Shown: piece after piece, positions 7,338 to 47,758 of the stretch
How the letters are laid out: each line of letters opens with the position of its first letter
How positions within the stretch are numbered: position 1 is the stretch's first letter
DNA from: Escherichia coli
Lineage (GTDB): Bacteria; Pseudomonadota; Gammaproteobacteria; Enterobacterales; Enterobacteriaceae
Strand: one strand, 5' to 3'
Length of the DNA: 64,000 nucleotides
NCBI RefSeq assembly: GCF_024223415.1
Contig: NZ_CP100500.1
Program-made: the position numbers and the translations under genes
The notes under the pieces: generated by a model
Told to the model about the DNA's origin: nothing
Seen by the model: only the letters and a program-made list of their open reading frames with translations
Databases searched by the model: none

Positions 7338-8149
7338 CCGAATCAGTAGCCCGTTTGCGCGGCGAACAGTTAACCCTGGGATATGGCAAATATACCGTTG
7401 CGGAAAATCTGACTGTAGAAATACCTGATGGTCACTTCACGGCAATTATCGGGCCAAATGGCTGCGGTAAATCCACGTTGCTGCGTACCTTAAGCCGCCT
7501 GATGACGCCTGCTCATGGGCATGTCTGGCTGGATGGCGAGCACATTCAACATTACGCCAGTAAAGAGGTTGCCCGGCGGATTGGTCTGTTGGCGCAGAAT
7601 GCTACCACGCCGGGCGATATCACCGTGCAGGAGCTGGTGGCGCGTGGGCGTTATCCGCATCAACCGCTGTTTACCCGCTGGCGCAAAGAGGATGAAGAAG
7701 CGGTAACGAAAGCGATGCAGGCCACGGGAATAACTCATCTGGCAGATCAAAGCGTGGATACCCTTTCTGGCGGACAACGCCAGCGAGCGTGGATCGCGAT
7801 GGTGCTGGCCCAGGAAACGGCGATTATGCTGCTCGACGAACCCACGACCTGGCTGGATATCAGTCATCAGATTGATCTACTGGAACTGTTAAGCGAACTG
7901 AACCGCGAGAAAGGCTATACCCTGGCGGCGGTGCTGCACGATCTTAATCAGGCCTGTCGTTACGCCAGCCATTTGATTGCATTGCGGGAAGGGAAAATTG
8001 TTGCTCAGGGAGCGCCGAAGGAGATTGTCACTGCTGAACTGATTGAGCGCATTTATGGTCTGCGTTGCATGATCATTGACGATCCAGTTGCCGGAACGCC
8101 ACTCGTGGTGCCGCTCGGAAGAACGGCACCTTCAACCGCAAATAGTTAA
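7334..8149 (+). CDS. fepC: ferric enterobactin ABC transporter ATPase FepC
   Basis: Start at MTESVARLRGEQ (271 aa) overlapping the fepG stop (ATGA); Walker A GPNGCGKST and ABC signature LSGGQRQR present. The longer ORF from 7193 is rejected. Confidence 0.93.
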   Translation: MTESVARLRGEQLTLGYGKYTVAENLTVEIPDGHFTAIIGPNGCGKSTLLRTLSRLMTPAHGHVWLDGEHIQHYASKEVARRIGLLAQNATTPGDITVQELVARGRYPHQPLFTRWRKEDEEAVTKAMQATGITHLADQSVDTLSGGQRQRAWIAMVLAQETAIMLLDEPTTWLDISHQIDLLELLSELNREKGYTLAAVLHDLNQACRYASHLIALREGKIVAQGAPKEIVTAELIERIYGLRCMIIDDPVAGTPLVVPLGRTAPSTANS

Positions 8150-33305: not shown

Positions 33306-35207
33306 ATGTCAACCGGATTACGTTTCACACTGGAAGTGGACGGCCTGCCACCGGACGCTTTTGCGGTGGTTTCCTTTCATCTCACCCAGTCACTCTCTTC
33401 GCTCTTTTCCCTCGATCTCTCCCTGGTCAGCCAGCAGTTTCTCTCCCTTGAATTCCAGCAGATCCTCGACAAAATGGCCTACCTGACGATATGGCAGGGC
33501 GATGACGTACAGCGCCGGGTGAAAGGTGTGGTGACCTGGTTTGAACTGGGGGAGAACGACAAAAACCAGATGCTGTACAGCATGAAGGTATGCCCGCCGC
33601 TGTGGCGTGCCGGTCTGCGCCAGAACTTCCGTATCTTCCAGAACGAGGACATCAAAAGCATCCTCGGCACGATATTGCAGGAAAACGGGGTGACCGAGTG
33701 GAGTCCGCTGTTCAGTGAACCGCATCCTTCCCGTGAGTTTTGTGTCCAGTACGGTGAGACTGATTACGATTTCCTGTGCCGGATGGCGGCGGAGGAAGGC
33801 ATCTTCTTTTATGAGGAGCATGCTTACAAAAGTACCGACCAGAGCCTGGTGCTGTGCGACACGGTCCGCCATCTGCCCGAATCTTTTGAAATCCCATGGA
33901 ACCCGAACACCCGTACCGAGGTGAGCACCCTCTGCATCAGCCAGTTTCGCTACAGCGCACAAATCCGCCCTTCTTCCGTGGTGACCAAAGACTACACCTT
34001 TAAACGCCCCGGCTGGGCAGGACGTTTTGATCAGGAAGGCCAGCACCAGGATTACCAGCGCACGCAGTATGAGGTGTATGACTACCCCGGACGTTTCAAG
34101 GGCGCCCACGGGCAGAACTTTGCCCGCTGGCAGATGGAGGGCTGGCGAAACAATGCAGAAACCGCGCGGGGAATGAGTCGCTCGCCGGAGATATGGCCGG
34201 GACGGCGAATTGTGCTGACGGGGCATCCGCAGGCGAACCTGAACCGGGAATGGCAGGTGGTGGCAAGTGAACTGCACGGCGAGCAGCCGCAGGCGGTGCC
34301 GGGAAGGCGGGGAGCAGGGACGGCGCTGGAGAACCATTTTGCGGTGATCCCGGCAGACCGGACATGGCGACCCCAGCCGCGGCTAAAACCGCTGGTGGAC
34401 GGTCCGCAGAGCGCCGTCGTGACGGGGCCGGAGGGTGAGGAAATCTTCTGTGATGAACATGGCCGAGTGCGGGTGAAATTCAACTGGGACCGTTATAACC
34501 CGGCAGACCAGGACAGCTCGTGCTGGATCCGTGTGGCACAGGCGTGGGCAGGCACCGGTTTTGGCAACCTGGCGATACCGCGTGTGGGTCAGGAGGTGAT
34601 AGTGGACTTCCTCAACGGCGATCCGGACCAGCCGATCATTATGGGGCGCACCTACCACCAGGAAAACCGCACCCCCGGCAGCCTGCCGGGGACGAAGACG
34701 CAGATGACCATCCGTTCCAAAACGTATATGGGCAGCGGGTTTAATGAGCTGAAGTTTGACGATGCGACAGGGAAAGAACAGGTCTACATCCACGCGCAGA
34801 AGGACATGGATACCGAGGTACTCAACGATCGTACCACCACCGTAAAACACGATCATCGCGAAACCGTAAAAAATGACCAGACGGTCACGATACAGGAAGG
34901 TAATCGCCTTCTTATGGTGGAAAAAGGCGACAAGATCACAGGAGTACGAAAAGGTTCTTTATCTGAGAATGTCTTTCAGGACAGAGGCACGATTGCCGGT
35001 TCGGTGCATGTTGACGCTGTAGACAATGGTGGCGAAGGCAACGGTATACAGGCTTATACGGCAATTAAGGAAATTATGCTGGCCGTGGAGGAAAGCAAAA
35101 TTGCGCTGACGCCGGATGGCATTCAGCTACAGGTCGGGGAATCAACGGTAATCAGGCTGTCGAAGGATGGCATCACCATCGTGGGCGGCTCTGTTTTTAT
35201 CAACTGA
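33306..35207 (+). CDS. vgrG: type VI secretion spike protein VgrG (gp27/gp5-like, no C-terminal extension)
   Basis: 633-aa ORF with strong RBS GGAGG; canonical VgrG sequence features; preceded by about 600 bp of AT-rich DNA. Confidence 0.9.
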   Translation: MSTGLRFTLEVDGLPPDAFAVVSFHLTQSLSSLFSLDLSLVSQQFLSLEFQQILDKMAYLTIWQGDDVQRRVKGVVTWFELGENDKNQMLYSMKVCPPLWRAGLRQNFRIFQNEDIKSILGTILQENGVTEWSPLFSEPHPSREFCVQYGETDYDFLCRMAAEEGIFFYEEHAYKSTDQSLVLCDTVRHLPESFEIPWNPNTRTEVSTLCISQFRYSAQIRPSSVVTKDYTFKRPGWAGRFDQEGQHQDYQRTQYEVYDYPGRFKGAHGQNFARWQMEGWRNNAETARGMSRSPEIWPGRRIVLTGHPQANLNREWQVVASELHGEQPQAVPGRRGAGTALENHFAVIPADRTWRPQPRLKPLVDGPQSAVVTGPEGEEIFCDEHGRVRVKFNWDRYNPADQDSSCWIRVAQAWAGTGFGNLAIPRVGQEVIVDFLNGDPDQPIIMGRTYHQENRTPGSLPGTKTQMTIRSKTYMGSGFNELKFDDATGKEQVYIHAQKDMDTEVLNDRTTTVKHDHRETVKNDQTVTIQEGNRLLMVEKGDKITGVRKGSLSENVFQDRGTIAGSVHVDAVDNGGEGNGIQAYTAIKEIMLAVEESKIALTPDGIQLQVGESTVIRLSKDGITIVGGSVFIN

Positions 35208-35234: not shown

Positions 35235-35696
35235 ATGCAGTTCACTTTTAATGAAGGCCACATTCAACTGCCGTCTCAATGGCAGGATCAGTCAATGCAG
35301 GTCCTGGTGTCCACAGATAACAGTGGCATCAACCTGGTCATTACCCGCGAAGCCGTTCCACAGGGAACCCTGACACCAGAGCTGTACCAGGAAACGCTGG
35401 CGCTGTACCAGGGCAAACTTGATGGGTACACCGCACATGCCTGCCGGGAAATCACTCTGGCAGAGGCCCCGGCCTGGCTGCTGGATTATTCCTGGAACGG
35501 TCCGGAAGATGAAGGGAATCAGGGGCGGATTAGCCAGATAGCCGTATTCCAGCGGCGTGGAGATACGCTGCTGACCTTCACTTTCAGCACCTCCTTATCC
35601 CTGAAGAACAGTCAAAAGACGATGCTGCTGGAGGTGATAAAGAGCTTCACCCCGTTGCCACCGGAGAATGATATCCAAAAGGACCAGCCGCGCTGA
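35235..35696 (+). CDS. DUF1795-family (Eag-like) effector chaperone/adaptor
   Basis: 153-aa ORF directly between vgrG and a prePAAR Rhs gene, the usual position and size for Eag/DUF1795 chaperones; family assignment is by context and sequence recollection. Confidence 0.7.
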   Translation: MQFTFNEGHIQLPSQWQDQSMQVLVSTDNSGINLVITREAVPQGTLTPELYQETLALYQGKLDGYTAHACREITLAEAPAWLLDYSWNGPEDEGNQGRISQIAVFQRRGDTLLTFTFSTSLSLKNSQKTMLLEVIKSFTPLPPENDIQKDQPR

Positions 35697-35715: not shown

Positions 35716-38700
35716 ATGAGTGAAGGACCAGGCGGGCCACAGGGAGCGACCGCAGGCGGTACGCTGGCAATGCGAATGCTTTCACAGCAGGCGATGGTCG
35801 CCAGCCAGATGAAACGGGCAGCCAACAACAAAGCCATTGCACAGATGTTGGCATCAAAAAAGTCTGGCCCCCCCGCCGCCAGGCTGGGCGATGAAATTCA
35901 GCACAAGAGTTTTTTGGGGGCGCTGGCAGGGGCCGTGCTGGGGGCGATAGTGACCATCGCAGAAGGTTGCCTGATTATGGCCGCCTGTGCCACCGGCCCT
36001 TATGCGCTGGTTCTGGTGCCTGCGCTGATGTATGCCAGCTATAAGGCGAGTGATTATGTGGAGGAGAAACAGAACCAGCTTGAATCATGGATAAACAGCT
36101 TTTGTGACACGGACGGCGCCATCAATACCGGTTCTGAAAACGTAAAAATTAACGGAAAGCCCGCTGCCAGGGCCGCCGTCACCCTTCCCTCTCCTCCCCC
36201 GCCTGAAGCAATACCCGAAGCCTCACAGGGGGAGCATTCATGGGGTGACATGGCCCTTGACCTGCTTGAATCGGCAGCGGAAAAAGCAGCGCCACTGGCT
36301 AAATCCTGGGGGAACGCTGTTATCACCCTGACGGACAGCAATGCCAGTTTTATGGATCGCGTCAGTGCAGGCGCATCGCTTCTGTTTCCCGCCGGTCCGG
36401 TATTAATGGAGTTTGCCACCATGGTGGGCGGGCGTGGCGAAATCAAAAAAGATGTGGATTTCCCGGAAGCCGGTGAGGACACGGCGCTCTGCGACAAGGA
36501 GAACAAACCACCGAGGATAGCCCAGGGCAGCAGCAACGTCTTTATCAACAATCAGCCTGCCGCGCGCAAGGGCGACAAACTGGAGTGCAGCGCGGCAATC
36601 GTGGAAGGTTCGCCGGACGTCTTTATTGGGGGTGAGCAGGTCACCTATCTGGATATCCAGCCGGAGTTCCCGCCATGGCAGAGAATGATCCTGGGAGGAA
36701 TAACGATAGCCAGCTATCTTCTGCCGCCAGCAGGACTGCTGGGAAAACTGGGGAATCTGGCGAAACTGGGCAAACTGGGAAACCTGCTGGGGAAAAGCGG
36801 GAAGCTGCTGGGCGCAAAACTCGGCGCGTTGCTGGGGAAAACAGGTAAGTCGTTAAAAAGTATTGCCAATAAAGTCATCAGATGGGTAACAGATCCTGTC
36901 GATCCGGTAACCGGCGCGTACTGCGACGAACGTACCGACTTCACCCTGGGCCAGACCCTCCCCCTCTCCTTCACCCGTTTCCACAGTTCTGTACTGCCAC
37001 TGCATGGCCTGACGGGCGTGGGCTGGAGCGACTCCTGGAGCGAATACGCCTGGGTGCGTGAACAGGGAAACCGGGTGGATATCATCAGCCTGGGAGCCAC
37101 GCTGAACTTCGCCTTCGACGGTGAAAGTGATACGGCGGTTAACCCGTATCACGCCCAGTACATTCTGCGCCGCTGCGACGATTACCTGGAGCTGTTCGAC
37201 AGGAATGCACTGAGCAGCCGCTTCTTTTATGACGCCTTTCCGGGAATGCGTCTGCGCCACCCGGTGACTGACGATACCAGCGATGACCGCCTGGCACACA
37301 GCCCCGCAGACCGGATGTACATGCTGGGCGGGATGAGCGACACCGCCAGCAACCGCATCACGTTTGAGCGCGACAGCCAGTACCGGATCACGGGTGTCAG
37401 TCACACCGACGGGATCCGGCTTAAACTGACGTACCACGCCAGCGGCTACCTGAAAGCCATTCACCGCACGGATAACGGCATACAGACGCTGGCGACCTAC
37501 GAACAGGATGCGCGGGGGCGGCTGACAGAAGCGGATGCGCGGCTGGACTACCACCTGTTTTATGAGTACGACGCTGCGGACCGGATCATCCGCTGGTCCG
37601 ATAACGACCAGACGTGGAGCCGTTTCACCTACGATGAACAGGGCCGGTGCGTGACCGTCACCGGGGCGGAGGGCTATTACAACGCCACGCTGGACTATGG
37701 TGACGGCTGCACCACCGTGACGGACGGCAAGGGCATTCACCGTTATTACTATGATCCTGACGGCAATATTCTGCGGGAAGAAGCGCCGGACGGCAGCACC
37801 ACCACGTATGAATGGGATGAATTCCATCACCTGCTGGCCCGCCACTCCCCTGCCAGGCGGGTGGAGAAATTTGAATACAACGCCGCACAGGGTCAGTTAA
37901 GCCGTTACACGGCGGCAGACGGCGCGGAGTGGCAGTACTGCTATGATGAGCGCGGCCTGCTCAGCAACATCACCGACCCTGCCGGGCAGACGTGGACGCA
38001 GCAGTGTGATGAACGCGGCCTGCCGGTAAGTCTGGTGTCGCCACAGGGCGAAGAGACCCGGCTGGCGTACACGCCGCAGGGGCTGCTGTCGGGGATATTC
38101 CGCCAGGATGAACGGCGTCTGGGCATAGAGTACGACCACCACAACCGGCCGGAAACACTCACCGACGTGATGGGCCGTGAACACCACACCGAATACAGCG
38201 GTCACGACCTGCCGGTGAAGATGCGCGGCCCCGGCGGTCAGTCAGTGCGGTTGCAGTGGCAGCAGCACCATAAACTGAGCGGCCTTGAGCGGGCAGGAAC
38301 CGGCGCAGAAGGATTCCGCTATGACCGCCACGGCAACCTGCTGGCGTACACGGACGGTAACGGCGTTGTCTGGACAATGGAATACGGCCCGTTCGATTTG
38401 CCGGTGGCGCGAACGGACGGTGAAGGCCACCGCTGGCAGTACCGCTACGATAAAGACACGCTGCAGCTCACAGAAGTCATTAACCCGCAGGGTGAGTCTT
38501 ATCTTTATATTCTGGACAACTGTGGCCGGGTGACGGAAGAACGTGACTGGGGCGGCGTGGTCTGGCGTTACCGTTATGACGCTGATGGCCTGTGTACCGC
38601 CAGGGTCAACGGCCTGGAGGAAACCATCCTCTACGGCCGGGACGCCGCAGGCCGCCTGGCAGAAGTCATCACGCCGGAAGGTAAAACGCAGTATGCGTAT

Positions 38701-40536
38701 GACAAATCCGGCAGGCTGACGGGTATCTTCAGCCCGGACGGCACATCACAGCGCACCGGCTACGACGAACGCGGGCGGGTGAATGTCACCACTCAGGGCC
38801 GACGGGCCATTGAATACCACTACCCCGACGAACATACCGTCATCCGCTGTATCCTGCCACCGGAAGATGAACGCGACAGACACCCCGATGAATCCCTGCT
38901 GAAAACCACGTACCGCTACAACGCAGCCGGAGAACTGACGGAGGTTATCCTGCCGGGGAATGAGACGCTGACGTTCAGCCGTGATGAGGCAGGACGTGAA
39001 GTGTTCCGGCACAGTAACCGGGGTTTTGCCTGTGAGCAGGGCTGGAATGCAGCCGGCCAGCTTACCAGCCAGCGCGCCGGACTTTTCCCGGAGGAAGCCA
39101 CGTGGGGCGGGCTGGTTCCGTCACTGGTGCGGGAGTACCGTTACGACAGCGCGGGTAATGTGTCAGGCGTCACCAGCCGGGAAGATTACGGACGGGAAAC
39201 ACGGCGGGAATACCGGCTGGACCGGAACGGCCAAGTCACGGCGGTGACAGCCTCAGGCACCGGGCTGGGCTATGGCGAAGGCGATGAGTCCTATGGCTAT
39301 GACAGCTGTGGCTACCTGAAGGCGCAGTCTGCGGGCAGGCACCGGATAAGTGAAGAGACTGACCAGTATGCCGGAGGCCACCGGCTGAAACAGGCCGGAA
39401 ACACGCAGTATGACTATGACGCCGCAGGCCGGATGGTCAGCCGGACAAAACACCGTGACGGCTACCGCCCGGAAACAGAGCGGTTCCGGTGGGACAGCCG
39501 GGACCAGCTGACCGGGTATTGCAGCGCACAGGGTGAGCTGTGGGAATACCGCCACGACGCCAGCGGCAGACGAACAGAGAAACGCTGCGACCGGAAGAAA
39601 ATCCGCTTCACGTATCTGTGGGACGGCGACAGTATTGCGGAAATCCGGGAATACCGCGATGATGAACTGTACAGCGTACGGCACCTGGTGTTTAACGGCT
39701 TTGAGCTGATAAGCCAGCAGTTCAGCCGGGTACGGCAGCCGCACCCGTCCGTGGCTCCGCAGTGGGTGACGCGGACGAATCATGCGGTGAGCGACCTGAC
39801 GGGCCGGCCGCTGATGCTCTTTAACAGTGAAGGTAAAACCGTCTGGCAGCCGGGACAGACCAGCCTGTGGGGGCTGGCACTCAGCCTGCCCGCAGACACA
39901 GACTACCCGGACCCGCGCGGGGAACTGGACCCGGAAGCCGACCCCGGCCTGCTGTATGCGGGACAGTGGCAGGATGCGGAATCCGGGCTGTGCTATAACC
40001 GGTTCCGGTATTACGATCCGGAAACCGGAATGTACCTGGTGAGTGATCCGCTGGGGTTGCAGGGAGGGGAGCAGACTTACCGGTATGTGCCTAATCCTTG
40101 TGGGTATGTTGATCCCTCTGGGTTGGCAATGACTTCGAAAATAGTCAATAAACTACCTTCTGCAAAAGATCTTGCTACAAAAAGGGCCAGTGAGTTATTA
40201 GCAAAGGCAACATCTAATACCCAGCGAAGTAAATTACCAAGGGCAGTTTCAGCTGTTGTTGATAAGAGAACTGGCAAAATATATTATGGAGAAAGTGGCT
40301 GGCCTCACCCAACAGAAATACATCCTACATTACAAAATAATATGCCATCAGCCAGTAAGGAGCGATGGGCAATCGAGAACTGTGCGGAATTTAAAGCTGT
40401 AAATGAAGCTTTGAAGGCAAATGCGAAAATTAGTGATCTTGAAGTTCATACAGTATTGGTAAAAACAGGCGAAGCTTTTCCAATGTGTAAGAATTGTCAA
40501 ATTTCAATATTTGGCGCTGTTGTTACAAGCGGGTGA
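35716..40536 (+). CDS. rhs: Rhs polymorphic toxin with N-terminal prePAAR/TM/PAAR region, YD-repeat shell and a variable C-terminal tip resembling a deaminase-fold toxin
   Basis: 1606-aa ORF; prePAAR motif AARLGDEIQH followed by hydrophobic helices; YD repeats; core ends with DPLGL...DPSGLA (about 40045-40119); after that GC content drops and the tip carries C-A-E (40381..40389) and P-M-C-K-N-C (40480..40497) about 34 residues apart, the zinc-ligand pattern of cytidine/adenosine deaminases. Confidence 0.9.
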   Translation: MSEGPGGPQGATAGGTLAMRMLSQQAMVASQMKRAANNKAIAQMLASKKSGPPAARLGDEIQHKSFLGALAGAVLGAIVTIAEGCLIMAACATGPYALVLVPALMYASYKASDYVEEKQNQLESWINSFCDTDGAINTGSENVKINGKPAARAAVTLPSPPPPEAIPEASQGEHSWGDMALDLLESAAEKAAPLAKSWGNAVITLTDSNASFMDRVSAGASLLFPAGPVLMEFATMVGGRGEIKKDVDFPEAGEDTALCDKENKPPRIAQGSSNVFINNQPAARKGDKLECSAAIVEGSPDVFIGGEQVTYLDIQPEFPPWQRMILGGITIASYLLPPAGLLGKLGNLAKLGKLGNLLGKSGKLLGAKLGALLGKTGKSLKSIANKVIRWVTDPVDPVTGAYCDERTDFTLGQTLPLSFTRFHSSVLPLHGLTGVGWSDSWSEYAWVREQGNRVDIISLGATLNFAFDGESDTAVNPYHAQYILRRCDDYLELFDRNALSSRFFYDAFPGMRLRHPVTDDTSDDRLAHSPADRMYMLGGMSDTASNRITFERDSQYRITGVSHTDGIRLKLTYHASGYLKAIHRTDNGIQTLATYEQDARGRLTEADARLDYHLFYEYDAADRIIRWSDNDQTWSRFTYDEQGRCVTVTGAEGYYNATLDYGDGCTTVTDGKGIHRYYYDPDGNILREEAPDGSTTTYEWDEFHHLLARHSPARRVEKFEYNAAQGQLSRYTAADGAEWQYCYDERGLLSNITDPAGQTWTQQCDERGLPVSLVSPQGEETRLAYTPQGLLSGIFRQDERRLGIEYDHHNRPETLTDVMGREHHTEYSGHDLPVKMRGPGGQSVRLQWQQHHKLSGLERAGTGAEGFRYDRHGNLLAYTDGNGVVWTMEYGPFDLPVARTDGEGHRWQYRYDKDTLQLTEVINPQGESYLYILDNCGRVTEERDWGGVVWRYRYDADGLCTARVNGLEETILYGRDAAGRLAEVITPEGKTQYAYDKSGRLTGIFSPDGTSQRTGYDERGRVNVTTQGRRAIEYHYPDEHTVIRCILPPEDERDRHPDESLLKTTYRYNAAGELTEVILPGNETLTFSRDEAGREVFRHSNRGFACEQGWNAAGQLTSQRAGLFPEEATWGGLVPSLVREYRYDSAGNVSGVTSREDYGRETRREYRLDRNGQVTAVTASGTGLGYGEGDESYGYDSCGYLKAQSAGRHRISEETDQYAGGHRLKQAGNTQYDYDAAGRMVSRTKHRDGYRPETERFRWDSRDQLTGYCSAQGELWEYRHDASGRRTEKRCDRKKIRFTYLWDGDSIAEIREYRDDELYSVRHLVFNGFELISQQFSRVRQPHPSVAPQWVTRTNHAVSDLTGRPLMLFNSEGKTVWQPGQTSLWGLALSLPADTDYPDPRGELDPEADPGLLYAGQWQDAESGLCYNRFRYYDPETGMYLVSDPLGLQGGEQTYRYVPNPCGYVDPSGLAMTSKIVNKLPSAKDLATKRASELLAKATSNTQRSKLPRAVSAVVDKRTGKIYYGESGWPHPTEIHPTLQNNMPSASKERWAIENCAEFKAVNEALKANAKISDLEVHTVLVKTGEAFPMCKNCQISIFGAVVTSG

Positions 40537-40540
40537 TTAT

Positions 40541-40978
40541 ATGTGTGAATTAATTAATGAAGCATCAAAATATGGGAAAGTCAATGTAAGAAAGATGGAC
40601 ATTGATTTGTGTTGTAAAAAAATAGAGGAAGAAGGGTATTCTGTTTTCGTTGCGTTCTATGATTTTATAAAAAAATATGGCGGTTTATATGGCTTTCATT
40701 CAGCTTACAAAGACACCACTATAAGTGAGGCTTTTTTTATAGATCCAGAAAGGGCCTCTAATCGCATTTTTATAGAAAGAGTCAATGATTATATTGAGAG
40801 AGCTGGTTACAATATGATTCCTGTTGGCGAGTGCAGTAATGGTCATATCACATTATTATATGGGGAAAATAATGTGATATATGGCGGCTTGGATGATTAT
40901 CTTTGGAAGTATGGGGATAATTTATCTTCATCAATTGATATATTGATTAATGGTAAGGAGGCAGTTGAAATTCCGTAA
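40541..40978 (+). CDS. putative cognate immunity protein for the Rhs tip
   Basis: AT-rich ORF starting 5 bp after the rhs stop (ATG at 40541; an upstream TTG at 40511 would overlap rhs); position and composition typical of Rhs immunity genes; family unknown. Confidence 0.6.
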   Translation: MCELINEASKYGKVNVRKMDIDLCCKKIEEEGYSVFVAFYDFIKKYGGLYGFHSAYKDTTISEAFFIDPERASNRIFIERVNDYIERAGYNMIPVGECSNGHITLLYGENNVIYGGLDDYLWKYGDNLSSSIDILINGKEAVEIP

Positions 40979-40984
40979 GGCCAA

Positions 40985-42909
40985 CTGCCAGGGCCAACGG
41001 CCTGGAGGAAACCATCCTCAACAGCCGGGACGCCGCAGGCCGCCTGGCAGAAGTCATCTCGCCGGAAGGCAAAACGCAGTATGCGTATGACAAATCCGGC
41101 AGGCTGACGGGTATCTTCAGCCCGGACGGTACATCACAGCGCACCGGCTATGATGAACGCGGGCGGGTGAATGTCACCACTCAGGGCCGACGGGCCATTG
41201 AATACCACTACCCCGATGAACACACCGTCATCCGCTGTATCCTGCCACCGGAAGATGAACGCGACAGACACCCCGATGAATCCCTGCTGAAAACCACATA
41301 CCGCTACAACACCGCCGGAGAACTGACGGAGGTCATTCTGCCGGGGGATGAGACGCTGACGTTCAGCCGTGATGAGGCGGGACGTGAAGTGTTCCGGCAC
41401 AGTAACCGGGGTTTTGCCTGTGAGCAGGGCTGGAATGCAGCCAGCCAGCTTGTCACCCAGCGCGCCGGATTTTTCCCGGAGGAAACCACATGGGGCGGGC
41501 TGCTCCCCTCACTGGTACGGGAGTACCGTTACGACAGCGCGGGCAATGTGTCGGCTGTCACCAGCCGGGAAGATTACGGACGGGAAACACGGCGGGAATA
41601 CCGGCTGGACCGGAACGGCCATGTCACGGCGGTGACAGCCTCAGGCACCGGGCTGGGCTATGGCGAAGGCGATGAGTCCTATGGCTATGACAGCTGCGGC
41701 TACCTGAAGGCGCAGTCTGCGGGCAGGCACCGGATAAGTGAAGAGACTGACCAGTATGCCGGAGGCCACCGGCTGAAACAGGCCGGAAACACGCAGTATG
41801 ACTATGACGCCGCAGGCCGGATGGTCAGCCGGACAAAACACCGTGACGGCTACCGCCCGGAAACAGAGCGGTTCCGGTGGGACAGCCGGGACCAGCTGAC
41901 CGGGTATTGCAGCGCACAGGGTGAGCAGTGGGAATACCGCCACGACGCCAGCGGCAGACGGACGGAAAAACGCTGTGACCGGAAGAAAATCCGTTTTACG
42001 TACCTGTGGGACGGCGACAGTATTGCGGAAATCCGGGAATACCGCGATGATGAACTGTACAGCGTACGGCACCAGGTGTTTAACGGCTTTGAGCTGATAA
42101 GCCAGCAGTTCAGCCGGGTACGGCAGCCGCACCCGTCCGTGGCCCCGCAGTGGGTGACGCGGACGAATCACGCGGTGAGCGACCCGACGGGCCGCCCGCT
42201 GATGCTCTTTAACAGTGAAGGCAAGACGGTCTGGCGGCCGGGGCAGACCAGCCTGTGGGGGCTGGCACTCAGCCTGCCCGCAGACACCGACGACCCGGAC
42301 CCGCGCGGGGAACTGGACGCGGAAGCCGACCCCGGCCTGCTGTATGCAGGACAGTGGCGGGATGGGGAATCCGGGCTGTGCTATAACCGGTTCAGGTACT
42401 ACGAGCCGGAAACCGGAATGTACCTGGTGAGTGATCCACTGGGGTTGCTGGGGGGTGAGCAGACTTACCGGTATGTGCCTAATCCACTGGGTTGGATTGA
42501 CCAGTATGGACTTGCTGGTTGCCCCAGAGCTCTGGCAAGGGCAATGAAACGGGCTAACAGAAACCTAGCTAAGAGTGCCGGATACATGAATCGAGCTTGG
42601 TATAAATTCAAAGGTTCTGCCGCCCATCATATTGTTGCTTGGGATGACCCCCGTGCTTTAGGCGCAAGAAAAATTCTGGAAAAATATGGTATACACATTG
42701 ATTCCGCAGAAAATGGAATATTTTTGAAACATGTAGATCCAAACTCTCTTCAGCCAGGATCTTATCATCGTGTTATTCATACGAACAAATATTATGCTGA
42801 TGTTGAGGCACGACTCGCAGACGCAGCTAAGGCTAATGGGAAACAAGGTGTTCTTGATGAGTTAGATGCTATCAGGGATGACCTGCTTTTTAATAGACTA
42901 ATTTATTAA
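40985..42909 (+). pseudogene. orphan rhs fragment (about 1.5 kb of core plus a distinct tip of the AHH nuclease family), no N-terminal region
   Basis: Nucleotides about 40988-42500 are near-identical to the main rhs at about 38599-40115; after its own DPLGL motif the tip differs and contains GSAAHHIVAWDD (AHH at 42622..42630), then ENGIFL and SYHRVIH, matching the HNH-like AHH family; longest internal ORF is 41167..42909. Confidence 0.7.
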
Positions 42910-42922
42910 TAAGGGCATAGTA

Positions 42923-43456
42923 ATGAATGTTTATTTAATTCGGCATGATGTGGACAACTTCAAGTTTTACTTGCAAGACGAGAGTGACTTTCTTTCAGTT
43001 GCTGCTTTTGATTTTTGTGGAGAGTCTCTATTTAATGGATGGAAACCATACAAAATAGAGCTATTTAAAGGAAAAACTAAAGCTGAGAAATCATTAAACG
43101 GGGATTTTAATTCATCATGTTTTAGTCCAGGATTATTATACGTCGAACATTCTCTCGCAGATGTATTATCTCGTCAGGCAAATGATATTGAGTTATTAAA
43201 AGTAATCACCAGTGATGATCGTGATTTTTATTATGCAAACGTGGTAGGGAAAATACCAGCCTTACATTATAACAACAGACAAGAGCTACAAATTATGAGT
43301 AGAACACAAGAATATAAATTCAATAACTCCATAAATGAAATGTTAATATTTCGTGATAAAACATTACCTTCAAACTATTTTGTTACAGATCGTTTTGTGG
43401 ATATTTTTCAGAATGATTTTCGTGGGGTAATTTTTAAAAAAGTTGGTGAGATATAA
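42923..43456 (+). CDS. putative immunity protein for the orphan AHH-nuclease tip
   Basis: 177-aa AT-rich ORF immediately downstream of the orphan tip; family unknown. Confidence 0.6.
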   Translation: MNVYLIRHDVDNFKFYLQDESDFLSVAAFDFCGESLFNGWKPYKIELFKGKTKAEKSLNGDFNSSCFSPGLLYVEHSLADVLSRQANDIELLKVITSDDRDFYYANVVGKIPALHYNNRQELQIMSRTQEYKFNNSINEMLIFRDKTLPSNYFVTDRFVDIFQNDFRGVIFKKVGEI

Positions 43457-43482
43457 CTTAATGCATTGAACATCTAACCCGT

Positions 43483-44015
43483 ACCGCTATGACCGCCACG
43501 GTAACCTGCTGGCGTACACGGACGGTAACGGCGTTGTCTGGACGATGGAATACGGCCCGTTCGATTTGCCGGTCGCGCGAACGGACGGTGAAGGCCACCG
43601 CTGGTGGTACCGCTACGATAAAGACACGCTGCAACTGACAGAAGTCATCAACCCGCAGGGTGAGTCATATCTTTATGTTCTGGATAACTGTGGCCGGGTG
43701 ACGGAAGAGCGTGACTGGGGCGGCGTGGTCTGGCGTTACCGCTATGACGCCGATGGCCTCTGTACCGCCAGGGTCAACGGACTGGAGGAAACCATCCTCT
43801 ACAGCCGGGACGCTGCAGGGCGCCTGGCAGAAGTCATCACGCCGGAAGGGAAAACGCAGTATGCGTATGACAAATCCGGCAGGCTGACGGGTATCTTCAG
43901 CCCGGACGGCATATCACAGCGCACCGGCTATGACGAACGCGGGCGGGTGAATGTCACCACTCAGGGCCGACGGGCAGGGAAAGATCATCAGAAGTTCACT
44001 TTTTGTACTAAATAA
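43483..44015 (+). pseudogene. second rhs core fragment (about 0.5 kb) truncated at the H-repeat insertion
   Basis: Near-identical to the main rhs at about 38316-38808; ORF 43545..44015 ends in a short unrelated tail (GKDHQKFTFCTK) where the H-repeat element begins. Confidence 0.65.
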
Positions 44016-45300
44016 TTCGCATTTTATGTTTAAAAATTGAGATATTCCTCATTATCCGAAGCTGTTTTTTATTGCTTATACATGATCAAATACTCCTTAC
44101 ATAATTAAGGAGAACAAAATGGAACTTAAAAAATTGATGGAACATATTTCTATTATCCCCGATTACAGACAAGCCTGGAAAGTGGAACATAAATTATCAG
44201 ATATTCTACTGTGGACTATTTGTGCCGTTATTTCTGGTGCAGAAGGTTGGGAAGATATAGAGGATTTTGGGGAAACACATCTCGATTTTTTGAAGCAATA
44301 TGGTGATTTTGAAAATGGTATTCCTGTTCACGATACCATTGCCAGAGTTGTATCCTGTATCAGTCCTGCAAAATTTCACGAGTGCTTTATTAACTGGATG
44401 CGTGACTGCCATTCTTCAGATGATAAAGACGTCATTGCAATTGATGGAATAACGCTCCGGCACTCTTATGATAAGAGTCGTCGCAGGGGAGCGATTCATG
44501 TCATTAGTGCGTTCTCAACAATGCACAGTCTGGTCCTCGGACAGATCAGGACGGATGAGAAATCTAATGAGATTACAGCTATTCCTGAACTTCTTAACAT
44601 GATGGATATTAAAGGAAAAATCATCACAACTGATGCGATGGGTTGCCAGAAAGATATTGCAGAAAAGATACAAAAACAGGGAGGGGATTATTTATTCGCT
44701 GTAAAGGGAAATCAGGGGCGACTAAATAAAGCCTTTGAGGAAAAATTCCCGCTGAAAGAATTAAATAATCCAGAGCATGACAGTTACGCAATCAGTGAAA
44801 AGAGTCACGGCAGAGAAGAAATCCGTCTTCATATTGTTTACGATGTCCCTGATGAACTTATTGATTTCACGTTTGAATGGAAAGGGCTGAAGAAATTATG
44901 CGTGGCAGTCTCCTTTCGGTCCATAATAGCAGAACAAAAGAAAGAGCCAAAAATGACGGTCAGATATTATATCAGTTCTGCTGATTTAACCGCAGAGAAG
45001 TTCGCCACAGCAATCCGAAACCACTGGCACGTGGAGAATAAGCTGCACTGGCGTCTGGACGTGGTAATGAATGAAGACGACTGCAAAATAAGAAGAGGAA
45101 ATGCAGCAGAATTATTTTCAGGGATACGGCACATTGCTATTAATATTTTGACGAATGATAAGGTATTCAAGGCAGGGTTAAGACGTAAGATGCGAAAAGC
45201 AGCCATGGACAGAAACTATCTGGCGTCAGTCCTTGCGGGGAGCGGGCTTTCGTAATCTTGCCCTGCCTGCTCACCTCCAGGCACTTCCACTACATCATGA
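44016..45300 (+). mobile_element. H-repeat (H-rpt) insertion element, boundaries approximate
   Basis: Encloses the H-rpt transposase ORF; left edge set where rhs homology stops (about 43976-44016); right edge not defined by recognisable terminal repeats. Confidence 0.45.
44119..45255 (+). CDS. H-repeat-associated protein (ISAs1-family transposase, YhhI/YdcC-like)
   Basis: 378-aa ORF closely resembling the H-rpt proteins found next to K-12 Rhs elements; sits at the distal end of the Rhs island. Confidence 0.85.
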
Positions 45301-45520: not shown

Positions 45521-47758
45521 GTGGACTGGCTTCTTGATGTTTTTGCTACCTGGCTCTACGGCTTAAAAGTAATCGCGATAACGTTAGCGGTCATCATGTT
45601 CATCAGCGGGCTGGACGATTTTTTTATTGATGTCGTCTACTGGGTACGCCGCATTAAACGCAAGTTGAGTGTTTATCGCCGCTACCCGCGAATGAGTTAC
45701 CGCGAACTGTATAAACCAGATGAAAAACCGTTAGCGATTATGGTTCCGGCGTGGAATGAAACGGGCGTCATCGGCAATATGGCCGAGCTGGCGGCGACCA
45801 CGCTCGACTACGAAAACTATCATATCTTTGTTGGCACCTACCCCAACGACCCGGACACTCAGCGTGATGTTGACGAAGTGTGCGCTCGCTTCCCGAATGT
45901 GCATAAGGTAGTCTGCGCGCGTCCTGGCCCCACCAGCAAAGCCGACTGTCTGAACAACGTGCTGGACGCCATCACCCAGTTTGAGCGTAGCGCCAATTTC
46001 GCATTTGCTGGTTTTATTCTGCATGACGCCGAAGATGTGATTTCACCGATGGAGTTGCGTCTGTTCAACTATCTGGTCGAGCGTAAAGATCTGATTCAGA
46101 TCCCGGTATACCCATTCGAACGCGAATGGACGCACTTCACCAGCATGACTTACATTGATGAGTTTTCAGAACTGCATGGCAAAGATGTTCCGGTGCGTGA
46201 AGCCCTCGCCGGACAAGTACCCAGCGCAGGCGTCGGCACCTGTTTCAGCCGCCGCGCCGTGACCGCTCTGTTAGCTGATGGTGACGGTATTGCTTTCGAC
46301 GTGCAAAGTCTTACTGAAGATTACGACATTGGCTTCCGCCTGAAAGAAAAAGGTATGACGGAAATTTTTGTCCGTTTTCCGGTGGTGGATGAAGCCAAAG
46401 AACGCGAGCAGCGTAAATTTTTACAGCACGCACGGACGTCAAACATGATCTGCGTGCGCGAATATTTCCCCGATACCTTTTCGACTGCGGTTCGACAAAA
46501 ATCCCGCTGGATCATCGGCATTGTTTTCCAGGGCTTTAAAACCCATAAATGGACCTCCAGCCTGACGCTGAACTACTTTCTCTGGCGCGACCGCAAAGGG
46601 GCAATCAGTAACTTTGTCAGCTTCCTCGCGATGCTGGTGATGATCCAGCTTTTGCTGTTGCTGGCGTATGAAAGTTTGTGGCCCGATGCCTGGCATTTCC
46701 TTTCTATTTTTAGCGGCAGCGCATGGTTAATGACCCTGCTGTGGCTAAACTTTGGCTTGATGGTTAACCGCATCGTGCAGCGGGTGATTTTCGTCACTGG
46801 CTACTACGGCCTCACGCAGGGGCTACTATCTGTCCTGCGTCTTTTCTGGGGCAACCTGATTAACTTCATGGCCAACTGGCGCGCGTTAAAACAGGTACTT
46901 CAACACGGCGATCCACGTCGCGTCGCGTGGGATAAAACAACGCATGACTTCCCCAGCGTCACTGGCGATACCCGCTCGTTGCGCCCGTTAGGTCAAATTC
47001 TGCTGGAAAATCAGGTCATCACTGAAGAACAGCTCGATACAGCACTGCGTAATCGCGTCGAAGGTCTACGCCTGGGCGGTTCAATGCTGATGCAGGGGCT
47101 GATTAGCGCCGAGCAGCTGGCACAGGCGCTGGCAGAGCAAAACGGCGTGGCGTGGGAATCCATCGATGCCTGGCAGATCCCGTCCTCGCTGATTGCCGAA
47201 ATGCCGGCCTCCGTGGCGCTGCATTATGCGGTACTGCCGCTGCGTCTGGAAAATGATGAGTTAATTGTCGGCAGTGAAGATGGTATTGACCCGGTTTCGC
47301 TGGCGGCCCTGACGCGTAAAGTCGGACGCAAAGTGCGTTACGTCATTGTTCTGCGGGGACAAATTGTCACGGGGTTACGTCACTGGTATGCACGCCGACG
47401 CGGTCACGATCCGCGGGCAATGTTGTACAATGCGGTTCAGCATCAGTGGCTCACGGAACAGCAGGCCGGTGAAATCTGGCGGCAATATGTGCCGCATCAG
47501 TTCCTGTTCGCCGAAATACTGACCACGCTCGGTCATATTAATCGTTCAGCAATTAACGTGTTGTTATTGCGCCATGAACGCAGTTCTCTGCCGCTCGGCA
47601 AGTTTTTGGTCACCGAAGGCGTTATCAGCCAGGAAACGTTGGATCGCGTCCTGACAATTCAACGCGAATTACAAGTTTCGATGCAATCACTATTACTCAA
47701 AGCAGGTTTAAACACAGAACAGGTTGCGCAACTGGAGTCCGAAAATGAAGGAGAATAA
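45521..47758 (+). CDS. nfrB: bacteriophage N4 adsorption protein B (inner-membrane glycosyltransferase-like) NfrB
   Basis: 745-aa ORF with GTG start; N-terminal TM and glycosyltransferase family 2-like region; followed by nfrA. Confidence 0.88.
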   Translation: MDWLLDVFATWLYGLKVIAITLAVIMFISGLDDFFIDVVYWVRRIKRKLSVYRRYPRMSYRELYKPDEKPLAIMVPAWNETGVIGNMAELAATTLDYENYHIFVGTYPNDPDTQRDVDEVCARFPNVHKVVCARPGPTSKADCLNNVLDAITQFERSANFAFAGFILHDAEDVISPMELRLFNYLVERKDLIQIPVYPFEREWTHFTSMTYIDEFSELHGKDVPVREALAGQVPSAGVGTCFSRRAVTALLADGDGIAFDVQSLTEDYDIGFRLKEKGMTEIFVRFPVVDEAKEREQRKFLQHARTSNMICVREYFPDTFSTAVRQKSRWIIGIVFQGFKTHKWTSSLTLNYFLWRDRKGAISNFVSFLAMLVMIQLLLLLAYESLWPDAWHFLSIFSGSAWLMTLLWLNFGLMVNRIVQRVIFVTGYYGLTQGLLSVLRLFWGNLINFMANWRALKQVLQHGDPRRVAWDKTTHDFPSVTGDTRSLRPLGQILLENQVITEEQLDTALRNRVEGLRLGGSMLMQGLISAEQLAQALAEQNGVAWESIDAWQIPSSLIAEMPASVALHYAVLPLRLENDELIVGSEDGIDPVSLAALTRKVGRKVRYVIVLRGQIVTGLRHWYARRRGHDPRAMLYNAVQHQWLTEQQAGEIWRQYVPHQFLFAEILTTLGHINRSAINVLLLRHERSSLPLGKFLVTEGVISQETLDRVLTIQRELQVSMQSLLLKAGLNTEQVAQLESENEGE

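Follow-up and report, generated by a model that had tools for sequence, protein, structure and literature searches.

Orphan rhs modules are best compared with rhs-CT(orphan)/rhsI(orphan) of Salmonella Typhimurium (STM0292), whose activation through recombination has been reported (Koskiniemi et al. 2014, PMC3967940; see also Starsta et al. 2020, PMC7043789). The AHH family of nuclease toxins carries the signature [AG]HH, N, H, H and Y, and Imm11 is among the immunity families listed for Tox-AHH (Zhang et al. 2012, PMC3482391); MXAN_0050 and MXAN_0049 of Myxococcus xanthus constitute an experimentally studied AHH-Imm11 pair (PMC12077181). For other AHH effectors, plasmid-DNA degradation assays of V2a and of a catalytic-site mutant have been published, as has genomic DNA degradation by Acinetobacter baylyi Rhs2 (PMC6971182). 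In E. coli, the order VgrG, EagR, Rhs-MafB19-type deaminase, immunity, Rhs-AHH, immunity has been described (bioRxiv 10.1101/2024.03.05.583533), which is also the order found here, and a study of ETEC placed AHH at the same locus, with or without the deaminase Rhs (PMC10761095). Here, we analysed a stretch of 64,000 nucleotides from E. coli (the window; contig NZ_CP100500.1 of assembly GCF_024223415.1), in which a displaced AHH toxin tip lies next to a gene for a small protein. We consider it very probable that the two form an orphan Rhs AHH toxin/Imm11 immunity cassette, the toxin being a silent reserve that recombination could deploy.

The whole region is a vgrG-eag-rhs effector island, situated in E. 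coli between cusS and nfrB; all genes named in the following are on the plus strand. The island is headed by vgrG, the T6SS spike gene (33306..35207; a 633-aa ORF). KV7 and NCTC10444 have the identical gene, under the label type VI secretion system tip protein VgrG. Next comes an Eag-type (DcrB/DUF1795) chaperone gene (35235..35696; Pfam DcrB PF08786, i-E 2.9e-27), whose product goes by 'DcrB-related protein' in RefSeq and corresponds to EagR in bioRxiv 10.1101/2024.03.05.583533. The third gene (35716..40536) encodes the main effector, a full-length class I prePAAR PAAR-Rhs protein of 1606 aa, and the operon-like row of these three is that of a class I prePAAR Rhs T6SS effector island. In the main Rhs, prePAAR_I, PAAR_motif and DUF6531 all fall within the first 500 aa, the core extends up to 40097, and a YwqJ-like deaminase forms the tip (40099-40536; YwqJ-deaminase PF14431, i-E 8.6e-6). 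The SUKH-3 immunity gene of this tip (40541..40978) takes its coordinates from KV7, whose locus is 99.9% identical and annotated in RefSeq; the ORF list has it begin with a TTG at 40511. Then follow the orphan core, its tip and the adjoining small gene, to which we turn below, and a second, tipless rhs fragment consisting of internal core only (43484..43975; 95.5% identical to main 38316-38807; PGAP label 'missing N-terminus and C-terminus'). This fragment ends ∼140 nt 5' of an ISAs1-family (H-repeat) transposase gene (44119..45255; a 378-aa ORF, which KV7 and NCTC10444 list as ISAs1 family transposase), which closes the rhs array before nfrB. Long minus-strand ORFs within the GC-rich rhs core, such as 41641-42171 (a copy of 39253-39783), were set aside as by-products of composition and repetition.

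The original prediction, made from the letters of the DNA alone, had the first orphan rhs fragment end in this tip, with a full-length rhs gene upstream. This arrangement was borne out, the fragment being the first of two that lie 3' of the full-length gene. The orphan core (40984..42485), 3' of both the main rhs and its SUKH-3 gene, aligns with main 38596-40097 over 1501 columns at 95.8% identity and corresponds to the ∼500 codons at the 3' end of the Rhs shell; the PxxxxDPxGL motif lies within it at 42406-42447. Its reading frame is open from 40981 and offers no ATG, the listed GTG at 41167 being only mechanical; the KV7 counterpart bears the PGAP label 'missing N-terminus'. The prediction was also right in that the fragment has no N-terminal delivery region: prePAAR, PAAR and DUF6531 are present in the main gene only. 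Because the fragment lacks a start codon as well as prePAAR/PAAR, and retains no more than the final third of the Rhs shell, its toxin cannot be loaded onto VgrG and fired, and as placed it would constitute a silent reserve. The orphan and main sequences part at 42485, after PxxxxDPxGL, where an AHH tip takes the place of the YwqJ-like deaminase tip of main, in line with the expectation that the two tips differ. GC content drops as well, being about 0.60-0.69 in the rhs core, 0.42 in the tip and 0.30-0.33 in the 177-aa ORF that follows. Judged from the DNA, the fragment shares the features given for orphan rhs-CT/rhsI modules (Poole 2011; Koskiniemi 2014) and, by comparison of genomes, also their capacity for fusion to the main gene.

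The tip (42487..42909; 140 codons and a stop) is an AHH-type nuclease domain of the HNH/EndoVII superfamily, with a presumed His-Me-finger (beta-beta-alpha-metal) fold, and by homology a probable DNase. Tip-specific sequence begins at 42486/42487, right after PxxxxDPxGL, so that the span of 42500-43456 given previously started ∼14 nt inside the tip-specific part, while its end coincides exactly with the stop of the 177-aa ORF. The motifs quoted as the hallmark of the AHH family are all present in the plus-strand ORF ending at 42909, namely GSAAHHIVAWDD (AHH at 42622-42630), ENGIFL (N at 42712-42714) and HRVIH (H at 42766-42768 and 42778-42780). Could these be chance resemblances in a tip that is no HNH/EndoVII nuclease? 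We regard this as scarcely credible. A comparison of the tip with PDB sequences returned noise only, and the lack of a solved relative detectable from its sequence speaks for such a reading; however, the HMM search that had been named as a check returned a significant match to Pfam AHH (PF14412; i-E 5e-15, 55.9 bits) across 99 of the 111 model positions (10-108). Besides, PF14412 is precomputed on 13 of the 14 database matches of the tip, the 14th, although 100% identical, being no more than a short piece that carries PF22178. Conservation extends to each of the five signature positions: A46 H47 H48, N76, H94 and H98 are invariant in an alignment of 13 homologous sequences, and Y102 is conserved in at least 90%. 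Finally, the tip is adjoined by a member of a cognate-type immunity family.

This neighbour, the AT-rich ORF of 177 aa at 42923..43456, begins 13 nt 3' of the tip ORF and had been proposed as the tip's own immunity gene. Its product, in RefSeq a 'hypothetical protein' (WP_001103754.1), has no direct match in Pfam even at E <= 10, and none in NCBIfam or among PDB sequences. A word-indexed protein search with the ORF retrieved 8 close clusters only, and it was a full HMMER search of representatives that gave the depth needed. Of 69 aligned relatives, 41 match Pfam Imm11 (PF07791) at E <= 0.001, with a best value of 1.8e-18, and the family profile of the protein matches PDB 6a4c (MXAN_0049) at E 1.7e-6. 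Structure prediction agrees: the AlphaFold2 model of the protein (pLDDT 96.8) gave 6a4c as the sole significant PDB match in Foldseek (E 1.5e-5, prob 1.00, TMq 0.57; next E 2). An earlier model, built from a 7-sequence alignment, was useless (pLDDT 40.8) and was kept out of the fold search. As to genomic context, remote homologues, of 49% and 36% identity, are encoded directly 3' of full-length PAAR-Rhs-AHH genes in other bacteria. Profile, predicted fold and synteny thus support the view that the ORF encodes a divergent Imm11-family protein, which as the cognate immunity protein would neutralise the AHH tip. The gene is equipped with an ATG of its own and with a Shine-Dalgarno-like AAGGG, and a scan of the plus strand in 40400-44150 found no terminator-like sites; with no such barrier between it and the upstream operon, it is probably expressed. 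Read through from that operon, it would probably protect its host against E. coli armed with Rhs-AHH.

A different function is conceivable if the toxin itself were made inside the cell. In Salmonella, a transcription start site lies 89 nt 5' of the PxxxxDPxGL-coding sequence in main and orphan copies alike, and a CTG start yields a toxic product (PMC7043789). By analogy, weak transcription from within the conserved rhs core, combined with translation from a non-ATG codon, might give rise to a small intracellular Rhs-CT held in check by the immunity protein, and the AHH/Imm11 pair might act in E. coli as a growth regulator akin to a type II toxin-antitoxin module, a role described for the main and orphan rhs loci of Salmonella, with recombinational activation as a second, occasional use. 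In-frame CTG and ATG codons 5' of the motif, e.g. at 42376 and 42418, would be compatible with this. Yet the number of sigma-70-like sites in 40400-44150 was no better than chance (3, against 5.0 +/- 2.4 expected from shuffles), with none 5' of the tip on the plus strand or otherwise placed to drive it, and a relaxed promoter scan returned two 8-of-12 matches only, weak candidates that lie either 3' of where the AHH motif begins or at the immunity gene. We therefore deem such a regulatory role improbable, and continue with the reading of the toxin as a silent reserve.

How the cassette is maintained across the species bears on a second alternative, the immunity-retaining relic already raised in the original prediction. 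On this reading, the locus would be of use solely through the 177-aa gene and its protection from Rhs-AHH attackers, the toxin fragment being non-functional and on the way to decay. A query consisting of the tip plus the ORF was covered to at least 80% in 88 of 5426 complete E. coli genomes. With the toxin thus present in about 1.6% of them, immunity has value, as this alternative would have it. Some copies are indeed damaged: the orphan copy of SCU-316 is frameshifted, and a main-position copy in CH423 is pseudogenised, with an internal stop and an H47R exchange, a natural change that is only suggestive as regards the catalytic HH pair. Together with the frameshift in NCTC10444 (see below), these indicate that several copies are decaying. 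Moreover, the adjoining deaminase module provides a precedent at the same locus, as it is whole in 4 genomes and falls below 80% in 361 of the 365 matching genomes; among the matches listed, partial copies cover query positions 313-886, i.e. the last ∼125 nt of the toxin and the SUKH-3 gene. The deaminase/SUKH-3 module thus survives mostly as an immunity-only relic with a truncated toxin, and the AHH cassette beside it is kept whole. It is this latter behaviour that weakens the relic explanation for the AHH cassette. The tip is present in 92 genomes, the immunity ORF in 89 and both in 88, so that one is hardly ever without the other. The tip DNA is at least 99% identical in 89 of the 92, and the toxin protein is the same, without a single amino-acid change, in the five alignable, non-pseudogenised copies, whether in orphan or main position. 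A natural recombinant, NCTC10444, re-deploys the tip. On balance, we find it rather unlikely, though a good deal less so than the regulatory role, that the immunity gene alone is of consequence. Among alignable copies, the immunity gene is more variable than the tip, with up to 9 amino-acid changes among 16 nucleotide differences. Positive selection on it was considered and dismissed, a rough dN/dS estimated from counts in this small sample being about 0.4.

The case for a deployable reserve rests chiefly on the arrangement of the repeats and on genomes that carry the fusion. RecA-type recombination between the two 1.5-kb, 95.8%-identical core copies would remove the deaminase tip along with the SUKH-3 gene (2388 bp) and leave a 4806-bp full-length PAAR-Rhs-AHH gene, whose product should be deliverable by a working T6SS. 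Exactly this product exists in nature: in 1919D62 and 23CRST029, an intact PAAR-Rhs gene of 4806 bp has this cassette at its end. In strain 1500, the cassette is an orphan behind another tip, and strain 154, ETEC-2264 and TW10828 are also among the genomes matching it. As for mobilisation through recombination with the upstream rhs, NCTC10444 provides the natural example, equalling the window minus one stretch of 2388 bp between the core copies, with a single clean crossover by which the AHH tip became part of the main Rhs. Of 63 diagnostic sites, the first 10 in NCTC10444 are main-type and the following 53 orphan-type, which places the crossover between main 38829 and 38835. A deletion product constructed in silico from the window differs from NCTC10444 by 3 mismatches and one 1-bp indel over 9563 bp. 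The fused gene itself carries a G5->G6 frameshift. The reverse order of events, i.e. a gain of the deaminase module by an NCTC10444-like ancestor, was rejected as less parsimonious, because those first 10 sites are orphan-type in the orphan of the window but main-type in NCTC10444. Formally, an assembly collapse in NCTC10444 could also account for its one-copy arrangement. Taken as assembled, a closely related strain has evidently switched the cassette on through recombination with the upstream full-length rhs, and comparison of the sequences suggests that the orphan can fuse to the main gene by homologous recombination. The deletion also takes out the SUKH-3 immunity gene, a loss that would come at a cost when siblings have not recombined, as pointed out for Salmonella (PMC3967940). 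With KV7 or NCTC9112 on the one side and NCTC10444 on the other, a natural before/after pair is at hand for orphan activation by a single crossover.

Both the cassette and the mechanism of its activation have been published before, and the present locus is a textbook orphan Rhs toxin/immunity pair, a finding that changes little in its overall significance. What is added here is the placement of an immunity protein that RefSeq calls 'hypothetical' in the Imm11 family, and the identification of NCTC10444 as a natural deletion derivative. WP_001103754.1 and its relatives can now be annotated as divergent Imm11-family AHH immunity proteins, which current Pfam and NCBIfam models miss. The E. coli T6SS-1 Rhs-AHH and its immunity protein (ECDEC10E_0684/0683, and Ec154_03862/03863 of STEC O22:H8 strain 154), as well as the 'locus 6' Rhs-AHH of ETEC TW10828 and ETEC-2264, are essentially the same genes as those of the window. 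According to papers citing their work, Ma et al. 2017 (Environ Microbiol 19:345) are said to have characterised E. coli Rhs-AHH. Further afield, MXAN_0050 belongs to the same toxin family, and MXAN_0049, the Imm11 prototype (6a4c), shares the immunity fold and family, its gene likewise being T6SS-associated and immediately 3' of the toxin gene. However, the model of the E. coli protein aligned with MXAN_0049 at only ∼10% identity, and the protein lies below Pfam Imm11 detection; the delivery scaffold in the E. coli cassette is a PAAR-Rhs cage, unlike in MXAN_0050. V2a of Agrobacterium tumefaciens 1D1609 (a PAAR-AHH protein) and the Rhs2-AHH of A. baylyi bear T6SS-delivered AHH tips too, although their sequences are distant, their immunity proteins different, and neither is an orphan copy. 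The Salmonella orphan, in turn, is likewise 5'-truncated, lies 3' of main rhs/rhsI and has a tip and an immunity gene to itself, it likewise is without a start codon or export region, and its ∼95% identical homology to the main gene allows fusion. It differs in its toxin and immunity families, in the length of the homology (522 bp, compared with 1502 bp here), and in that internal promoter activity was shown in Salmonella alone. Besides, the Salmonella model involves duplication followed by recombination, with rhsI(main) being kept, whereas NCTC10444 arose by plain deletion with loss of the SUKH-3 gene.

The region of interest lies between cusS and nfrB on the E. coli chromosome, and strains KV7 and NCTC9112 match it at 99.9% identity over 7.8 kb. 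On the plus strand, it comprises vgrG (33306-35207), the gene of a DcrB/DUF1795 Eag-type chaperone (35235-35696; Pfam DcrB, i-E 2.9e-27), the full-length main rhs gene (35716-40536), whose 1606-aa product carries N-terminal prePAAR_I, PAAR and DUF6531 domains and ends in a YwqJ-like deaminase tip (PF14431, i-E 8.6e-6), a SUKH-3 immunity gene (40541-40978), a 5'-truncated rhs fragment (40984-42909), a 177-aa ORF (42923-43456), a second rhs fragment of internal core only (43484-43975, equivalent to main-gene positions 38316-38807 at 95.5% identity), an ISAs1 (H-repeat) transposase gene (44119-45255), and nfrB (45521-47758), followed by nfrA. Core homology of the second fragment stops at 43975, ~140 nt 5' of the transposase gene, and other strains have additional orphan cassettes here, e.g. 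with a restriction-endonuclease-fold toxin or a zincin-like metallopeptidase toxin. Two minus-strand ORFs of 176 aa each, duplicated across the main and orphan cores (39253-39783 and 41641-42171), were put down to the GC-rich, repeated nature of the core and not taken as genes.

The first rhs fragment is an orphan AHH cassette, as the original prediction for 42500-43456 had proposed. Its core (40984-42485) is 95.8% identical to main-gene positions 38596-40097 over 1501 aligned columns; its PxxxxDPxGL motif spans 42406-42447, and the likeness to the main gene ends at 42485. The tip consists of the last 140 codons (42487-42909), so the predicted start fell 14 nt inside it, while the predicted end was exact. 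All three motifs that had suggested an AHH nuclease (GSAAHHIVAWDD, ENGIFL and HRVIH) lie within this tip, and Pfam AHH (PF14412) matches it over model positions 10-108 of 111 with an i-E of 5e-15, which rules out a chance resemblance. When the tip is aligned with 12 homologues from the database (Rhs proteins and stand-alone proteins of Xenorhabdus, Avibacterium, Flavobacterium and Lysinibacillus), residues A46 H47 H48, N76, H94 and H98 never vary and Y102 hardly does, coinciding with the [AG]HH, N, H, H, Y signature of Tox-AHH (Zhang et al. 2012, PMC3482391). GC content is ~0.6 in the core but 0.42 in the tip, and drops further to 0.30-0.33 in the following ORF, whose AT-richness had been noted; this is consistent with a horizontally exchanged cassette.

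The predicted lack of an N-terminal delivery region was borne out: the open frame of the fragment extends from 40981, directly after the SUKH-3 stop, and holds no ATG, and the ORF list's GTG start at 41167 is a mechanical assignment only. Internal expression of the cassette as a toxin-antitoxin-like module, for which there is a precedent in Salmonella (PMC7043789), has a low probability, since a promoter scan of 40400-44150 returned no better-than-chance promoter and a listing of in-frame starts only weak candidates.

The 177-aa ORF had no direct sequence match in Pfam, NCBIfam or PDB, and a word-indexed protein search found only eight close clusters. Searching 1.84 billion representatives with a profile yielded 94 relatives of ~180 aa each, and Pfam Imm11 (PF07791) matches 41 of the 69 aligned full-length relatives at E <= 0.001 (best 1.8e-18). 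The profile of this family matches PDB 6a4c (MXAN_0049; E 1.7e-6), the Imm11 prototype and immunity partner of the AHH nuclease MXAN_0050 (PMC12077181). An AlphaFold model from a deep alignment reached a pLDDT of 96.8 and a pTM of 0.90 (pLDDT 40.8 with a shallow alignment), and 6a4c was its sole significant Foldseek match in PDB (E 1.5e-5, probability 1.00, TMq 0.57; next E 2). Besides, Imm11 is among the immunity families listed for Tox-AHH (PMC3482391), and homologues with 49% and 36% identity lie directly 3' of full-length PAAR-Rhs-AHH genes in other bacteria (loci L008 and L011). Because relatives, profile and fold agree and synteny with Rhs-AHH is found, we call the ORF the cognate immunity gene of the AHH tip, a divergent Imm11 member missed by current models. 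It has its own ATG with AAGGG just 5' of the start, no plus-strand terminator-like site was found between the upstream operon and the ORF, and we infer that it is expressed. At L011 (GCA_030130165.1, 4912-6033 and 7320-7873), the PAAR-Rhs-AHH and Imm11-like genes are followed on their 3' side by a stand-alone 164-aa AHH ORF with a 203-aa partner, probably another orphan pair; two ORFs with a SymE toxin domain lie close by.

Mobilisation by recombination with the upstream rhs, likewise predicted, appears to have occurred in strain NCTC10444. At the 63 sites where the window's main and orphan cores differ, the single full-length rhs-AHH gene of this strain (L001 5704-10510) is main-type at the first 10 and orphan-type at the remaining 53, with no exception. 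Removing 38833-41220 (2388 bp) from the window in silico reproduces the NCTC10444 locus over 9563 bp, from vgrG to the ISAs1 gene, with three mismatches and one 1-bp insertion, and NCTC10444 is absent from those of the 5426 complete E. coli genomes that hold the whole deaminase/SUKH-3 module (40099-40978). Given these three observations, the most plausible reading is that the strain arose naturally from a window-like locus by deletion, through a single crossover that falls between 38829 and 38835 of the main gene (crossover sites 38829-38835 and 41217-41223). The reverse history, with an NCTC10444-like ancestor, would need the window's orphan to begin with main-type bases, which it does not. 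The insertion extends a G5 run to G6 (L001:8943) within the fused gene, annotated as frameshifted, and may reflect either a (long-read) sequencing error or genuine inactivation.

Of the 5426 complete genomes, 92 contain the tip, 89 contain the immunity gene, and 88 match the combined query of tip plus ORF over 80% or more of its length. At this same chromosomal locus, the cassette terminates an intact 4806-bp PAAR-Rhs gene in 1919D62 and 23CRST029. In further strains it lies in orphan position: strain 1500 and others have a different tip on the main gene ahead of it, and KV7, NCTC9112 and SCU-316 have the deaminase tip there. Approximate counts from record spans among the best 60 matches listed give ~21 genomes for the main and ~14 for the orphan position; the position was checked against annotation at seven loci. 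In E. coli O78 strain 3, identity to the window is 100% from 35716 to ~42300, where a deletion fuses the orphan core straight to nfrB (L013 9452-12487); this 3036-bp chimera is named a 'glycosyltransferase family 2 protein' by PGAP, and the strain has lost the AHH tip and immunity gene as well as the second rhs fragment and ISAs1 element.

The suggestion that the cassette might be a relic kept for its immunity gene alone suits its neighbour better. The deaminase/SUKH-3 module is whole in only four complete genomes, and 361 of the 365 genomes matching it hold less than 80%; all partial matches listed retain the final ~125 nt of toxin sequence together with the SUKH-3 gene, many of them in O26, O103 and O111 STEC. 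This is clearly an immunity-retaining relic. The AHH cassette fits such a reading less well because its toxin is almost always present, with a protein unchanged in the five alignable, non-pseudogenised copies among L001-L007. Tip DNA is at least 99% identical in 89 of 92 genomes, the immunity gene in only 10 of 89, with up to nine amino-acid changes across L001-L007. Positive selection on the immunity gene was set aside at a dN/dS of ~0.4, a rough estimate from difference counts; a different recombination history is possible. In CH423 (L004, ~7384-7806), the main-position AHH tip carries H47R, turning AHH into ARH at a predicted metal-ligand histidine, and according to PGAP the rhs gene is interrupted by an internal stop; this looks like a disarmed toxin copy with an intact immunity gene.

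Judging by family membership and by analogy with related AHH effectors (PMC6971182, PMC12077181), the tip would act as a His-Me-finger DNase delivered through VgrG by the T6SS when part of a full-length Rhs, and would be blocked in kin by the Imm11 protein. In the window, the tip is most likely neither made nor loaded and forms a silent reserve, the immunity gene probably protecting against carriers of the AHH toxin, which make up ~1.6% of E. coli. Recombination across the 1.5-kb repeat would then switch the deployed toxin from deaminase to AHH.

The cassette itself is already known. STEC O22:H8 strain 154 has the same arrangement of VgrG, EagR, Rhs-MafB19-type deaminase, immunity, Rhs-AHH and immunity, its AHH tip and immunity protein being 98-99% identical to E. 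coli proteins for which the preprint credits Ma et al. 2017 (bioRxiv 10.1101/2024.03.05.583533), and ETEC strains are reported to carry AHH at the cusS-nfrB locus with or without the deaminase Rhs (PMC10761095). The additions made here are incremental: the assignment of the immunity protein to Imm11, the crossover seen in NCTC10444, and the way the two modules differ. Orphan activation through recombination is established in Salmonella (PMC3967940), yet over a homology of 522 bp rather than the 1.5-kb repeat seen here, and with a prior duplication proposed, so that rhsI(main) is kept.
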